A stretch of DNA of 63,413 nucleotides, the filler included. It is 7 parts of 7 records of this genome, joined end to end, with 100 filler letters (N's around TTAATTAATTAA, not from the genome) between each part and the next. Parts side by side here need not be neighbours in the genome. Positions count along the whole stretch, not along the records: positions 55,487 to 59,887 come from SRR20825010_3751; 6 more parts are not named here. One strand, 5' to 3'. The position numbers and the translations under genes were made by a program. Positions 53,073 to 58,414 of the stretch are shown in pieces. Position 1 is the stretch's first letter. Each line of letters starts with the position of its first letter. Below the pieces are notes generated by a model that was not told where the DNA came from, searched no databases, and saw nothing but the letters and a program-made list of their open reading frames with translations.

Positions 53073-53753
53073 CTACCAGCCACACGCTTCCCGCAGTGGC
53101 TCAAGGGTTTCCCGAAACCCGGTCAGGTCGAACATCAACCCGTCGACGACACCACTGGACGACGCCACAGTCACTCCGGACGCGGCCGCCATGTTTCGCA
53201 CGGTTCGGATGGCGGGCAGCCCCCGACCACCACTGATCACGAAACCGTCGTCCCGGGCCCGCCAGATCTGACGGCCCTGGCCAAAATCGACGGTGACCCG
53301 TTCCTCTTTCACTGCCTCCGGCATCATCAACGTCAGTTCGGTGATGTTGTTGTGACACTGCACCGCCAGCAGCGGCCTCGGCGGTTTGACCCCAAGGGCA
53401 CTGAGCGTCAGCAGATGTCCTGTCAGCTCCGAAGTATTGCGATACAGCGGGCCGTCACCCGGGCGGCGGCGCTGTTCCTGAGCAAAGGCCTGGCGCCAGC
53501 GCTCGGGCTGGTTGCCAACGATGGCGTCTTCAACCGCCACTGAAAACGGGGTACCAAACACCTCGTCAAAACACGCCAACCGTTCCAGGCGCTGGCTCTC
53601 TTCGGTACACGCCATGGCCTCGGCCACCTGGGGATTGCCCTGCGCATTGGCAGCCAGAGACATCGTCGTACCAAGGGCGCAGAGCACAATGGCAAGGAGG
53701 CTGTTACTTCGAATACTTGGGTTCACGCTTCTGTCACCTGATACTTCAGACAT
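53073..53753 (-). CDS. vasI: T6SS-associated VasI/TagO protein
   Basis: C...RLERLACFD, CHNNITEL, GRGLPAI, LREACGW; lies between vasH and tssA. Confidence 0.85.
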   Translation of the reverse strand: MSEVSGDRSVNPSIRSNSLLAIVLCALGTTMSLAANAQGNPQVAEAMACTEESQRLERLACFDEVFGTPFSVAVEDAIVGNQPERWRQAFAQEQRRRPGDGPLYRNTSELTGHLLTLSALGVKPPRPLLAVQCHNNITELTLMMPEAVKEERVTVDFGQGRQIWRARDDGFVISGGRGLPAIRTVRNMAAASGVTVASSSGVVDGLMFDLTGFRETLEPLREACGW

Positions 53754-55297
53754 TTATGGGCCAGGGTGCGCTTGGGCAGCCCCAGGCTTTCCGCTGCCTG
53801 GGCACGGTTGCCACCGTACTGGCGCAGGCGTTCACGAATGATGGCTGCCTCGAACGCCTGGGCCGCAGCCCGAAGGTCGTCCACTTCATCCGCCAGGGGC
53901 ATGCCCGGTACGGCAGTTCCCTGAAAGTCACTGGCCACACAGGTTTCCTGGCTCGGAAACAAGTCATCCAGGCGCAGTACTTCCGGCTGGATATCGTCAC
54001 CCACCGGGGTTTGCAGACAGGCAAACTCAACAATGTTCCTCAGCTCCCGGGCATTGCCGGGAAAGTTATATGCCGCCAGCATGCCCAAGGCATGGCTGCT
54101 GATACCCAGTGGGCCGGCGCCCTCGCGGGCCGTGTACTCACGGATGAAATGCCGGCACAGGGGCTCCAGATCTTCCGGGCGCTCCCGCAATGGCTTGACC
54201 CGCAACGGGAACTGGCTGAGCCGGTAGAACAGGTCGCGGCGGAACCGGCCCTCTTCGATGCAGTCACTCAGTGGCTGATGGGTGGCCGCGACCAGTCGAA
54301 AATCAGAGTGTTGTTCCTGCTGAGCTCCGAGTGGGCGGAAGCGTCGGCTTTCCAGCACCCGCAGCAGTTTGGACTGCAGAGCCATGGGCATGTCGCCGAT
54401 CTCATCCAGGAACAGGGTGCCGCCATCCGCTTGCGCCAGCAGACCTTCCTTGGCTCGGTCGGCACCGGAAAACGCACCCTTGGCATGGCCAAAAAGTTCA
54501 CTTTCCAGCAACGAGTCCGGGATGGCGGCGCAATTGACCACCACTATCGGCCCTTCGGCCCGATCCGAAAACCGGTGAATGCCCTGAGCCACAAGATCCT
54601 TGCCGCAGCCGGTTTCACCCTGAACCAGAACCGACAGCTGACTACCGGCGGCCCGGACAATCTGGGCGCGAAGGTCGGTCATGCCTTTGGAGTTGCCAAC
54701 CAGAGTGGTCGCCAACTCTTCACAGCGCTGGCGTACGGCTTCTGCGTCGTGGAGGTGGTCGAGGGAGCGCTTGAGCATGCGCCGCTGCCAGACCTGGTCG
54801 CTGGTCTTGAGCTGGCTGACCCATTGGTGAGACAGCAGGGTCAACAAACCGCGGTACAGTGGCTGGGCGGTGATGCCGTCCCATTCGGGTTCTTCATTAC
54901 ACAGCACGAGGATGCCAAGAGTGCGGCCGTCTTCGCCTTTGATGGGTTCCAGCCAGAATGAGCGGGGCCGGTTGCTGGCGTCGACCAGGGCCTGGAAGCC
55001 CGGATGATCCAGGCGGTAGCTCGCGGCCCGTGACAATTCCCTGGGTTTGCCCTGTTGCAGCAGGTGGGCAAAGGGGTGGCTGAAGTCACCGCAGTCGAAT
55101 TCGCCCTGCTCGCCCAGTGCCGCACAGTGGAGCGTGCGGCCGCTGAGGTCGAGTTCGAGTGACCAGCAGCGGGTGAGGCCGAAGGTGTTTTCGAGTTGCC
55201 GTGAGGCGACTTTTAGCAGGGCTGGCAGGTTGTCCTGCCGGAGCAGTTCAACCGCCAGGTCTATGCCGGTGTGCAACTCCGTCTGCATCCGTCCCAT
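53723..55297 (-). CDS. vasH: Sigma54-dependent enhancer-binding protein VasH/Sfa
   Basis: [41 protein letters not shown]-terminal [11 protein letters not shown]. Confidence 0.9.
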
Positions 55298-55347
55298 TCT
55301 TCTTGTTCCCTGTGTTGGTTGTTCGCCGGCCGCGTACCCTGTGGTTC

Positions 55348-55386
55348 GGCTTTCCAAAACACGCTGTGAATACATCCCTGTACGCT
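55348..55386. repeat. Fragment of a Marinobacter-type intergenic repeat at the contig end
   Basis: TTTCCAAAACACGCTGTGAATACATCCCTGTACGCT resembles a repeat I recall from Marinobacter genomes; a contig break here fits a repeat; single copy in the window. Confidence 0.4.
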
Positions 55387-55629: not shown

Positions 55630-55980
55630 TTAACGCGCGCCGTATTTCAATACCCAAAGTGGCAGCAAAGCCGCAACATCGGCACTTTTCTCATCCAGTT
55701 CTATCGCCGTGGTCATGCCTCTTTCATCGATCCGCACGACGCGTCCACCAAAGCGGCAAATCTCGGGTGATCCAATCGGGCCGATAATTCCTTCGACGGG
55801 TTGATCCAGTGCGACATGATTTGCGATGCCGTTCAGAAGCATCCCGTCGAGCGACCAGTTTTCCGTTGAAAATCGCGCACCCTCAATCTCGACACTGAGG
55901 ACAGGATTCGATACGCGAAAAGCGCCACGCTTTTCGAATCTGTTTGCAACAGATTGTGTGTTCATTTCAGCTTGCAGCAC
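55630..55980 (-). CDS. Single-domain PilZ protein
   Basis: RxxxR (RGAFR) and NxSxxG (NWSLDG); GGAG RBS before GTG 55980, alternative ATG 55965. Confidence 0.75.
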   Translation of the reverse strand: MLQAEMNTQSVANRFEKRGAFRVSNPVLSVEIEGARFSTENWSLDGMLLNGIANHVALDQPVEGIIGPIGSPEICRFGGRVVRIDERGMTTAIELDEKSADVAALLPLWVLKYGAR

Positions 55981-56364
55981 GAATAGTCTCCATAAAAATT
56001 TGCCTGCTCTCTTGTATGCAGCCTTTATGCCAAACACCGGATCAAAGGGAAAACACTTGTAATCCCTTGCCTTTTTACGTGACGGGGAAGGGATGGAATT
56101 TCTATGAGGCAAGGCAAACGGCAAATTTTCCCGCTTAATAGGAAAAAACAGGCAGGGTTAATTTGGGTTTTACGAGGTGGATGATGAGGGCAAAAAGAGA
56201 ATCAAAATCAGTGAATCGGAGCGCCGAGACTTCATTTTGAGTTAAAATACGGAGTGACATCGACGGCACTGAATTTTTTTTAGATGCACCCGAAAGTAAT
56301 AATATTTTGTTTTTGAATGATTTTTCGCAATAATGCTGCAGGTGCGAAATAAAAAAATGAAATT

Positions 56365-56410
56365 TTGTCAATAATGACAATTTGTCATCTTTGAAAAAGC
56401 CTGCTACAAA
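56365..56410 (+). promoter_or_regulatory. Sigma70-type promoter with an overlapping palindromic operator
   Basis: -35 TTGTCA (56382-56387), 17-bp spacer, -10 TACAAA (56405-56410); half-sites TTGTCA-ATAA-TGACAA-T-TTGTCA. Confidence 0.6.
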
Positions 56411-56418
56411 ACTGGCCA

Positions 56419-56546
56419 AGCCGGGTAACTGGGCGGAAGATCCAAGCTTGGCTAAATAATTACAAGGTCGGGTAACTGGGCGCAAGATCCAGACTTAGCT
56501 CAACCATCTAAAGTCAGGTAACTGGGCGCAAGATCCAGGCCTGACT
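56419..56546 (+). ncRNA. Candidate cis-regulatory leader: three tandem 35-nt hairpins
   Basis: Units at 56419, 56466 and 56512 share GGTAACTGGGCG(C/G)AAGATCCA and have covarying closing stems. Confidence 0.75.
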
Positions 56547-56579
56547 AAATTATTCCAGTAATCAGGAGTCATCCCGTAA

Positions 56580-57551
56580 ATGACAATGCCGGCCGTTCTG
56601 GAAGGGAGTCTTTCTCTCCCAGTTATTGCATCGCCGATGTTCATCGTATCCGGGCCGGAGTTGGTAATTGCTCAGTGCAAGCAGGGCATCGTTGGATCAT
56701 TCCCGGCACTTAATGCGCGGCCGATTTCGCAGCTTGACGAATGGCTTCATCAGATCAAGTCGGAACTTGCCGACTATGCAGCGGCAAATCCTGATAAGAA
56801 GGTGGCGCCCTTTGCGGTCAATCAGATTGTCCATGCGTCAAACTCCCGGCTGGAAGAAGATGTGGCTCTCTGTGTAAAGCATGAAGTCCCGATTATCATC
56901 ACGAGCCTCCGGGCCCCGAATGAGATTGTTGAGGCGATACATTCTTACGGCGGAATTATTCTGCATGATGTGACAACTATCCGCCATGCACAAAAAGCGC
57001 TGGAAGCGGGTGTCGATGGGTTGATCCTGGTGTGTGCCGGCGCCGGCGGACATGCGGGAAGGTTAAGTCCTTTTGCGCTGGTTTCCGAAGTGCGGCAGTT
57101 CTTTGATGGGCCGATTGCGCTTTCCGGCGCGATTGCAAATGGACGTTCAATCCTGTCGGCTCAGGCGATGGGGGCAGACCTTGCTTATATGGGAAGTGCC
57201 TTTATCGCGACCAAGGAAGCGAATGCGGTAGACGACTATAAGAATATGATCGTGGAGAGTACCGGTGAGGATATTCTCTATACAAGCACCTTTACCGGCG
57301 TTCACGGGAACTACTTGCGTCCTAGTGTGGTGAAGGCGGGTCTCGATCCGGAGAATTTACCGGGTGCCGATAAAAGCCGGATGAATTTTGGCAGCGGTGG
57401 TACCGGTAAGTCAAAAGCCTGGAAGGACATTTGGGGTTCCGGGCAAGGTATTGGCAGCGTAAGCGATGTGCCAAGCGTTGAAGAATATGTTGATCGCTTA
57501 AAAGAACAGTATGCCCAGGCCAAGGCTGAAATCAATAATAAGGCCATTTAG
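56580..57551 (+). CDS. Nitronate monooxygenase / FabK-like FMN oxidoreductase
   Basis: PVIASPMF, GAGGHAG, LSGAI..G, AYMGSAFIATKEA, IWGSGQG. Confidence 0.9.
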   Translation: MTMPAVLEGSLSLPVIASPMFIVSGPELVIAQCKQGIVGSFPALNARPISQLDEWLHQIKSELADYAAANPDKKVAPFAVNQIVHASNSRLEEDVALCVKHEVPIIITSLRAPNEIVEAIHSYGGIILHDVTTIRHAQKALEAGVDGLILVCAGAGGHAGRLSPFALVSEVRQFFDGPIALSGAIANGRSILSAQAMGADLAYMGSAFIATKEANAVDDYKNMIVESTGEDILYTSTFTGVHGNYLRPSVVKAGLDPENLPGADKSRMNFGSGGTGKSKAWKDIWGSGQGIGSVSDVPSVEEYVDRLKEQYAQAKAEINNKAI

Positions 57552-57554
57552 ACT

Positions 57555-57592
57555 GAATTTTCCCTCACCCTAACGGGTGGGGGTAATTTCTT
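57555..57592. terminator. Hairpin between convergent genes
   Basis: CCCTCACCC-TAAC-GGGTGGGGG with AT-rich flanks. Confidence 0.6.
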
Positions 57593-57634
57593 CAAATTTC
57601 CGGTACATAAAAATGATGAGTTGAGGGTGCTGGA

Positions 57635-57826
57635 TCAGCGCCGAACGGTGATTGGTGAGCTGTTGCCCGCTGTTTCCCGAATGATATCGCGGATATTGGA
57701 TGTGCATTTCGCGCATTGCGGGGCAGCCCCCAGCGTTTCATAGACATTTGCGATGCGCTGCGCGCCAGAGGCGACGGCGCTTTTAATGTCTCGGTCCGTC
57801 AATCCGTTACAAAGGCAAATATACAT
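57635..57826 (-). CDS. bfd: Bacterioferritin-associated ferredoxin
   Basis: MYICLCNG...QCAKC [2Fe-2S] motif next to bfr. Confidence 0.93.
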   Translation of the reverse strand: MYICLCNGLTDRDIKSAVASGAQRIANVYETLGAAPQCAKCTSNIRDIIRETAGNSSPITVRR

Positions 57827-57846
57827 TTCACAACTTAATTAATATT

Positions 57847-57865
57847 AAAAATGACAATCATTCCT
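57847..57865 (-). promoter_or_regulatory. Fur-box-like site upstream of bfd
   Basis: AAAAATGACAATCATTCCT, 13/19 to GATAATGATAATCATTATC; minus-strand TTGACA about 25 bp further upstream. Confidence 0.55.
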
Positions 57866-57946
57866 AATAAATAAGCGATGTGCAATTAGTTGTCAATGGC
57901 AAGGGGAGTTTATGAGGCGGGAATCTGATACTAAAGGGTCAATTTT

Positions 57947-58414
57947 TTAAGACGTCTGCGACTGGATGTAGTTTTGGAGGCCCATCTTCTCGATTAAGCC
58001 AAGCTGTGTTTCCAGCCAATCAATATGCTCCTCTTCGGATTCCAGTATATCGGCCAGCAAATCACGGGAAACGTAATCCTGCTTGGTTTCGCAGTCGCTG
58101 ATAGCGGCTTTCAGATCGACATGACCGACATGCTCCATCTTAAGGTCGCATTCGATGATCTCCTTGACATCTTCGCCAATCATCAGCTTGCCAAGATCCT
58201 GCAGGTTGGGAAGCCCTTCCAGAAAGAGTATCCGCTTGATGAGTTTGTCCGCATGCTTCATCTCGTCGATAGACTCGTCATATTCTTTTTCGCCGAGTTC
58301 CTTGAGGCCCCAGTCTTCAAGCATGCGAGCATGCAGAAAATACTGATTAATGGCCGTCAATTCATTCTTAAGAATGACGTTGAGATGCTTGATAATTGAT
58401 GTGTCGCCCTTCAT
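57947..58414 (-). CDS. bfr: Bacterioferritin
   Basis: [41 protein letters not shown]. Confidence 0.97.

Follow-up and report, generated by a model that had tools for sequence, protein, structure and literature searches.

Tandem small-hairpin riboswitches exist, guanidine-II and NAD+-I among them. Together with the maeB motif, guanidine-II (mini-ykkC) and NAD+-I elements are short tandem hairpins in 5′ leaders, with a conserved loop or bulge and covarying stems. The eukaryotic iron-responsive element (IRE) and the bacterial IRE-like hairpins to which aconitase binds are bulged hairpins placed 5′-terminally on an mRNA; their upper stem has 5 bp, a C-G pair spans the loop, and in other contexts IREs occur in several tandem copies. 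Stabilizers such as the ompA leader place a stem-loop a few nucleotides from the 5′ end. The CsrB/RsmZ and CrcZ sponges are encoded at a unique locus and carry repeated hairpins in varying copy number, separated by A/U-rich linkers, with an A-rich stretch of the AAnAAnAA type near the 3′ end. ToxI arrays, finally, consist of a promoter, tandem RNA repeats of ~36–47 nt and then a gene. The locus described here resembles each of these systems in the features just named, and its hairpin array adjoins bacterioferritin genes.

Results

Three hairpins in the leader of an NMO-family gene

The window, the whole 63,413-base stretch of DNA that we analyzed, carries three 35-nt units within positions 56419–56546 of the plus strand (unit 1, 56419–56453; unit 2, 56466–56500; unit 3, 56512–56546). 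The units start 47 and 46 nt apart, are joined by linkers of 11–12 nt and are each followed by an A-rich linker; the sequence agrees with the units and period given in the initial annotation, and their coordinates were confirmed. Unit 1 has a lower stem of 8 bp, an AA bulge, an upper stem of 5 bp and the loop CGGAAGA, and units 2 and 3 have the loop CGCAAGA. Unit 2, of a type also found in two other loci (L005 and L006), has the weakest stem of the three, with one C-A mismatch. Each unit folds as had been drawn, with energies of −13.4, −8.1 and −17.3 kcal/mol for units 1, 2 and 3 on the plus strand and weaker energies of −6.9, −3.5 and −14.0 kcal/mol on the minus strand. Relative to shuffled sequence, unit 3 has a z of −3.73, the middle unit alone folds no better than shuffles (z −0.43), and the whole leader has a z of −2.02 on the plus strand and −0.49 on the minus strand. 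A covariance model built from the units (R1), run over the window with filters off, scored the three units at 61.7, 57.3 and 62.1 bits, with the next best match at 12.7. Likewise, a 21-nt core allowing up to 3 mismatches has three sites in the window, all in the array and all on the plus strand, and none of 100 shuffles contained any match.

Downstream of the array lie an AGGAG ribosome-binding site (56564–56568) and, with its ATG at 56580, a plus-strand gene for a 323-aa FMN enzyme of the nitronate-monooxygenase (NMO) family (56580–57551; Pfam NMO PF03060, E 3e-25). NCBIfam gave only a distant, FabK-like match to this protein, at 83.6 bits against a cut-off of 453. The gap between the end of the array and AGGAG is 17 nt, and a terminator scan over 56400–56580 found no terminator between the array and the gene, both as annotated. 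None of the units combines a G+C-rich hairpin with a U run, as an intrinsic terminator or attenuator does, and we found no alternative pairing of the hairpin to the ribosome-binding site.

Upstream, a 24-nt operator that is conserved across the order (TTGTCAATAATGACAATTTGTCAT, also given as TTGTCAANAATGACAANTTGTCAT; 56365–56388, plus strand) is made up of three TTGTCA/TGACAA half-sites, the last of which (TTGTCA, 56382–56387) doubles as the −35 element. A 17-nt spacer containing TG leads to the −10 element TACAAA (56405–56410), forming an extended −10, TGC TACAAA (56402–56410, plus strand), that is conserved in the aligned loci; most relatives have TAATAA as the −10, the extended −10 there being TGCTAATAA. 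The hairpin begins ~9 nt after the −10, with 0–3 unpaired nucleotides at the predicted 5′ end. Judged by this promoter-like sequence, transcription would start at ~56416–56418. The start site just 5′ of the array, as previously annotated, is predicted from this promoter-like sequence, and a strict promoter scan does not include this promoter in its list. Farther upstream in the aligned leaders is an inverted repeat, TTCGCA-N13-TGCGAA (56324–56348), that is conserved only where the NMO gene is kept and not in loci lacking the reading frame; it is a candidate site for a possible second regulator.

We also sought a sigma-54 promoter (GG-N10-GC) by eye, and none was present. On the minus strand at 53073–55375 are genes for a VasI-family type VI secretion protein and a VasH-like protein with GAF, sigma-54-activator and HTH_8 domains; this sigma-54 activator groups with type VI secretion genes, and the VasI/VasH-like genes seem unrelated to the sigma-70-like promoter of the hairpins. 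Between them and the array lies a small divergent ORF (55630–56124, minus strand; likely start MNTQSV...) with the PilZ-like sequence RGAFRVSNPVLSVEI..., for which neither Pfam nor NCBIfam gave a match. A similar ORF is found upstream of the locus in relatives of both groups, those with and those without the NMO reading frame (L029, L034, L035).

For evidence of transcription, a metatranscriptomic library (X19) contains a 103-nt contig that runs from the 3′ half of the last hairpin into the first NMO codons in an L006-like relative, and other contigs of the same RNA study cover the NMO ORF of that relative. The X19 contig is compatible with co-transcription of hairpin and NMO and gives no 5′ end; the evidence is weak, because it consists of contigs and may include DNA carry-over. 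No X18 or X19 contig covers 56250–56543 of the window sequence, so these libraries are uninformative on leader expression here.

The hairpin occupies a single locus in Sneathiella and its relatives

The exact core was found in 13 genome loci, one per genome, 11 of them titled Sneathiella; the carriers are marine Sneathiella-type bacteria. When R1 was run over five whole genomes it gave 13 matches of 53–65 bits, all at one locus, with the next best at 19.9, in a search that scored 150 of ~2,600 first-look candidates per genome and could therefore miss weak extra copies. Two further R1 matches (L040, 22.8 bits; L041, 21.8 bits) lay away from the operator within unrelated sequence and were dropped as chance. 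A broader covariance model (R2) matched none of the 149 other alphaproteobacterial genomes sampled.

The operator provides a route to the locus that is independent of the hairpin. It is single-copy in 37 of the 39 genomes of the order (up to 3 mismatches; the backwards control gave 0), and a hairpin of the same design starts 27–29 nt after it in 36 of these 37. The remaining genome (G031), whose operator has 3 mismatches and no convincing hairpin, was left unaligned. A single unit is present in 28 of the 37 genomes and 2–4 units in eight: two in G004, G011 and G027, three in G003, G005, G026 and G037, and four in G002. We took G026, whose NMO protein is 100% identical to that of the window, as a stand-in genome for the window. 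In metagenomes, the operator scan returned 26 loci, of which 17 have operator and hairpin, one is cut short (L105, which ends before the hairpin) and eight are unrelated; these hairpin-less loci (L106, L115, L116, L118, L119, L120, L122 and L124) were set aside.

The tally of copy numbers and downstream genes, proposed in the initial annotation together with a covariance-model search, gave 1–4 copies per locus, with NMO behind 20 of the 37. The annotation had also raised a REP-like repeat, with copies scattered in both orientations, as a way in which its reading could fail; we found one locus per genome, in the same orientation and place. These distributions are best explained by a module that is specific to one transcription unit in one alphaproteobacterial order, comprising Sneathiella and its relatives.

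In many assemblies the locus lies 6–8 kb from a contig end (L001, L003, L004, L008–L010, L013), and the window itself ends 6.9 kb downstream of it. These recurrent ends suggest that a repeat in the vicinity, possibly an rRNA operon, breaks the assemblies; an Rfam search found no rRNA inside the window.

The hairpin is under selection as plus-strand RNA

We aligned units at two depths, using substitution-only matching, since indel-tolerant matching gave noise in coding regions. In the alignment of 28 close units, 18 of them distinct (A1), 95.2% of cells are paired and 5 pairs have changed on both sides, and none of 500 shuffles scored as high. The deeper alignment (A2) contains 50 units, 42 of them distinct, with the diverged units found via the operator rather than the hairpin; one pattern match, "G024 unit 2", was left out as spurious. 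A2 spans very different stems (ATGCTAGCG/GAGTGGCAT, AGATCAGAG/GATTGGTCT and, as an inner stem, CTAAA/TTTAG), and yet 91.8% of its cells are paired, with changes to both partners in 10 of the 14 pairs and in 34 cells. Four of five measures were reached by none of 500 shuffles and the fifth by 1 of 500, and alignments slid out of register were 10–53% paired. G-U pairs make up 120 of 588 cells (20%), and only 74.5% of cells would pair on the opposite strand. The RNA hairpin of the plus strand is under selection. Both parts of the earlier proposal, selection on plus-strand RNA structure and G-U pairs that work on that strand only, are borne out, and the covariation with relatives is far stronger than that within the window.

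Across the family, the hairpin has a lower stem of 7–8 bp, an upper stem of 5 bp (columns 12–16 paired with 27–31, above the AA on the 5′ strand) and a loop of the form C-N(1-5)-AAGA. The AA bulge, which sits in an internal loop with (U/G)AA opposite G, the first C of the loop and its last AAGA are invariant over the 50 units. What had been annotated as an invariant AAC internal loop is therefore correct for AA and not for the C as an unpaired base, as 33 of the 42 distinct units have this C paired to the G that follows CCA. The loops vary from 7 to 10 nt, the most common being CGCAAGA (20 units), CAAAAAGA (11) and CGGAAGA (8), plus others. Given this variety, the GNRA tetraloop that was recognized in this window, and that holds there, is no feature of the family.

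Searching the whole window against Rfam 15 at the gathering score gave no matches. At E values up to 10, the region 56250–56650 had six matches far below threshold, the best of them to mir-344 (17.4 against 52.5 bits). The annotation could not assign the array to any known riboswitch class, and the Rfam 15 result, with maeB among the families tested, supports it there. Nor did we find a description of the hairpin family in the full text of the literature, supplements aside.

The RNA unit persists where the NMO reading frame has been lost

NMO homologs are present in every genome of the order. In 20 of the 37 operator loci an NMO gene lies directly 3′ of the hairpins, encoding a protein 87–100% identical to that of the window, with 100% identity in G026. 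In the other 17 the NMO reading frame is absent from the locus, and the promoter, hairpin, 3′ element and terminator remain. The best NMO homolog in these 17 genomes is only 49–64% identical and is encoded elsewhere, behind a different operator (GGACAAATGTCC twice). At these paralogous NMO genes (L060–L067) the twin operator GGACAAATGTCC is accompanied by an adjacent divergent TetR-type gene; we considered its product as the repressor, but the query was unmatched in all three ORF-keeping (Sneathiella) genomes searched.

The ORF-less loci are units of ~250–470 nt from promoter to terminator. Each begins with the operator, the −35 and −10 elements and one hairpin (two in G027), often followed by ACCGAG, a remnant of the ribosome-binding site. 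A middle part of 70–400 nt cannot be aligned between genomes. The 3′ part consists of the last NMO codons, now non-coding and with in-frame stops (GCCGAGGCCAAGGCATAAATCAATAATAAGGCC and variants; stops in L033, L034, L036 and L038), and then the terminator. In one metagenome locus (L104), decayed N-terminal NMO codons are still present. The C-terminal tail of the NMO protein is homologous to that of the paralog (EYKAAKDRINAA versus EQYAQAKAEINNKAI), which indicates that the 3′ element was once coding and that the ORF was lost rather than gained. Shared remnants, from which we judge the number and age of such losses, point to a single ancient loss.

The hairpin stems covary among the ORF-less loci themselves, as in L038 (CTAAA/TTTAG), and all the ORF-less loci inspected have terminators with different, compensating stems. 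We conclude from the stem covariation that selection on hairpin, promoter and terminator continues without the reading frame; several recent ORF losses, rather than one, would weaken this argument and not remove it. The annotation placed the array in control of the nitronate-monooxygenase-family gene. Because 17 of the 37 loci keep the unit without the ORF, that description is too narrow, and the hairpin is more than a switch for NMO translation.

In the window, the 3′ element is an A-rich stretch, TGCCCAGGCCAAGGCTGAAATCAATAATAAGGCC (57512–57545, plus strand), that encodes the last residues of the protein and is non-coding in the ORF-less relatives. Conservation of these last 11 NMO codons holds at the nucleotide level and extends to synonymous sites, and the element persists with in-frame stops among L033–L039, L071, L072, L083, L085 and L091. 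Just 5′ of the terminator, two GGCC blocks could pair around the A-rich AAUAAUAA segment. The 3′ element may itself be a separate RNA element. We also considered pairing between a hairpin arm and the 3′ element, for which the window offers a 6–7 nt complement, and rejected it by eye, as it fails in diverged loci.

The terminator scan placed an intrinsic terminator at 57562–57593 on the plus strand (stem 57562–57583 plus a T-rich tail), which is common to NMO and the convergent bfd. On the minus strand at 57635–58414 are genes for a BFD-like [2Fe-2S] protein (bfd) and bacterioferritin (bfr), convergent to NMO. L034, L036 and L039 also have a bfd gene 3′ of their ORF-less RNA unit, and in some loci the neighbor is an acyl-CoA dehydrogenase gene, not bfd.

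A subgroup of the ORF-less loci (L071, L072, L091, L103) has a second conserved hairpin-like block, ACUGUCUCCUAUUUCUC...GAGGAAACUGUCAGUGA, ~5–50 nt after the hairpin, in which what is left of the ribosome-binding site may pair with an anti-SD-like CUCCU. One of these, L103, is a compact unit of ~170 nt. No conserved small ORF was found in the ORF-less units; in L103 a GTG follows the second hairpin, with a stop two codons on.

The operator core recurs at acyl-CoA genes

The core palindrome of the operator, TTGACAANTTGTCAA (TTGACAA-N-TTGTCAA), also lies 5′ of acyl-CoA dehydrogenase genes in all five ORF-keeping genomes examined. In two ORF-less genomes it adjoins an acetyl/acyl-CoA synthetase-type gene and lies between an NMO-family and an SDR gene. 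The neighbors in the window include genes for a MaoC-type dehydratase and a hotdog thioesterase. Together, the operator core at acyl-CoA genes and these neighbors suggest that the RNA probably belongs to an acyl-CoA/fatty-acid catabolic regulon. We rejected a Fur-, Irr- or NsrR-type operator on the grounds that its related sites are found at acyl-CoA genes. The passages of PMC5343134 that we consulted do not give binding motifs, some of which its supplements may list.

Discussion

Our tentative reading, which we find plausible but stop short of calling probable, is that the hairpin is where a trans-acting factor, probably a protein, would dock, and that the RNA carrying it has a role of its own. 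A repressor would control both this RNA and genes of acyl-CoA/fatty-acid catabolism. The factor would dock on the hairpin and set the fate of the RNA, through its stability, its processing and perhaps, in Sneathiella, its translation; or else the RNA would titrate the factor. In the window the module would serve as the leader of the NMO mRNA, and in the ORF-less relatives the same unit of ~250–470 nt would be a non-coding RNA. The invariant unpaired nucleotides, the fixed 5′ position, the conserved internal copies and the persistence without the ORF fit a docking site best. Moreover, arrays arose in both groups, with two units in G027 and four in G002, and the bulge and loop stay invariant in their internal copies, which argues for a sequence-specific partner rather than mere protection of the 5′ end. 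Extra copies would raise avidity or capacity. Multivalency, which the initial annotation had built into its proposal, is optional, because single hairpins suffice in 28 of the 37 genomes. Against the docking reading, a factor dedicated to one site per genome would be unusual.

It is possible, if somewhat doubtful, that the history of the locus goes further and that an mRNA leader has outlived its gene. Deletion of NMO in about half of the order would then have left a non-coding RNA of ~250–470 nt, which keeps only the bulged hairpin at its 5′ end, the A-rich, Hfq-like 3′ module and the terminator. The hairpin would be an autonomous regulatory module, for instance a decoy or docking site for an RNA-binding protein, expressed within the acyl-CoA catabolic regulon; in Sneathiella, an NMO mRNA carrying 1–4 copies would be dual-function.

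A purely structural element is an unlikely alternative to the docking site, even though the placement of the hairpin suits it well: a 5′-terminal stem could protect the RNA against 5′-end-dependent decay by pyrophosphohydrolase and RNase E with no specific partner. In 36 of 37 genomes the hairpin starts 27–29 nt past the operator, with 0–3 unpaired nucleotides at the predicted 5′ end, and where the ORF is gone it has stayed together with promoter and terminator, which suits a stability element. For this purpose, however, a stem alone would do, yet it is the AA bulge and the C...AAGA loop that are invariant over 50 units and the stems that drift; units inside arrays, which are not 5′-terminal, keep the same invariant nucleotides, and repeated expansion to 2–4 copies would bring no benefit.

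We think it improbable, too, that the RNA acts as a base-pairing sRNA, probably with Hfq, whose loop and bulge or A-rich 3′ element pair with target mRNAs, with the Sneathiella NMO mRNA being dual-function. In favor of such an sRNA, the ORF-less loci are complete promoter-to-terminator units of ~250–470 nt with no conserved small ORF, and their 3′ element has A-R-N repeats of the AAUAAUAA type followed by a terminator with a U tail, an arrangement that we take to resemble an Hfq-binding module. But the conserved unpaired stretch of the hairpin, at 2 plus 5–7 nt, is short for a seed, and our target search was unsuccessful.

Much less likely is a small-molecule riboswitch, in which single or tandem aptamers for, say, acyl-CoA, FMN or NAD(H) would control NMO. 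The position in the 5′ leader of a metabolic gene, the conserved internal loop and the precedent of tandem small-hairpin riboswitches all suggest it, and tandem aptamers had been offered in the initial annotation. Against this, 17 of 37 loci have no downstream gene and the loop varies from 7 to 10 nt; nothing resembles an expression platform, with at least 17 nt from hairpin to ribosome-binding site, no alternative pairing and no terminator; and Rfam gave no match to the hairpin above threshold even when hits of E up to 10 were admitted.

An IRE-like hairpin bound by apo-aconitase and tied to bfd-bfr would be a special case of protein binding, and we regard it as highly improbable. The resemblance lies in the 5-bp upper stem, the unpaired 5′-strand nucleotides five pairs below the loop, the invariant cross-loop C...G that leaves one unpaired base 3′, and the position at the mRNA 5′ end; bfd and bfr are convergent just downstream, and bfd also follows several ORF-less loci. 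The CAGUGN loop and the bulged C are absent, however, and the operator is common to acyl-CoA genes, not iron-uptake genes, with acyl-CoA dehydrogenase replacing bfd in some loci.

Finally, a selfish or DNA-level repeat without RNA function (REP/BIME-like, CRISPR-like, ToxI-like or a protein-binding DNA palindrome), which might be suspected from tandem direct repeats of an imperfect palindrome that vary in copy number between species, is contradicted, and scarcely credible, given one locus per genome in constant orientation and place, G-U in 20% of paired cells, which would be mismatched in DNA and on the other strand, "spacers" of only 11–12 nt, and a downstream FMN enzyme rather than a ToxN/AbiQ-type nuclease, with no terminator between.

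If the docking reading or the outlived leader is true, the locus would provide a well-supported structured RNA family in which the same unit is an mRNA in one clade and apparently non-coding in sister lineages, and hence a natural experiment in the conversion of mRNA leaders to independent regulatory RNAs. It would also represent post-transcriptional control within alphaproteobacterial fatty-acid/acyl-CoA catabolism, where few such RNA elements have been described. Within what was searched, the family does not extend beyond one order or beyond one locus per genome.

Comparison with known systems

REP/BIME elements occur in many copies, in both orientations and at gene 3′ ends, a pattern that the hairpin does not show among the 150 of ~2,600 candidates per genome scored with R1. 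CRISPR arrays have spacers of ~26–40 nt, whereas the linkers here are 11–12 nt and the units differ and yet keep their pairing. In ToxI systems the repeats are followed by a terminator and a ToxN/AbiQ-family endoribonuclease; here an NMO-family FMN enzyme follows with no terminator before its gene, many loci have a single copy, and the RNA can do without the gene, which 17 of the 37 loci lack. The CsrB/RsmZ and CrcZ sponges differ in that most genomes here have one hairpin and the RNA of the window is also an mRNA, and the GGA that CsrA/RsmA would require in most loops is found in a minority of units (10 of 50, of the CGGAAGA and CGGAAAGA types). Compared with stabilizers of the ompA type, the unpaired nucleotides here are invariant in sequence, and tandem copies inside the array are conserved to the same degree.

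The IRE has a CAGUGN loop with a C-G cross-loop pair and a bulged C, whereas this hairpin has a C-GNRA-like-G-A loop and an AA bulge, so that only the cross-loop C and G are held in common; its 5-bp upper stem above unpaired 5′-strand nucleotides matches that of the IRE as a likeness of shape only, and its regulon context is acyl-CoA catabolism. Unlike the maeB, guanidine-II and NAD+-I elements, one hairpin suffices here (28 of 37 genomes), no Rfam family is matched, nothing serves as an expression platform, and loss of the downstream gene leaves the element in place; guanidine-II in particular has two hairpins with ACGR tetraloops, in place of which we find C-N(1-5)-AAGA loops. The hairpin defines a new family of structured RNA whose general type, the leader or sRNA hairpin, is familiar; its unusual traits are the tandem copies at the extreme 5′ end and an RNA unit that survives the loss of its gene.
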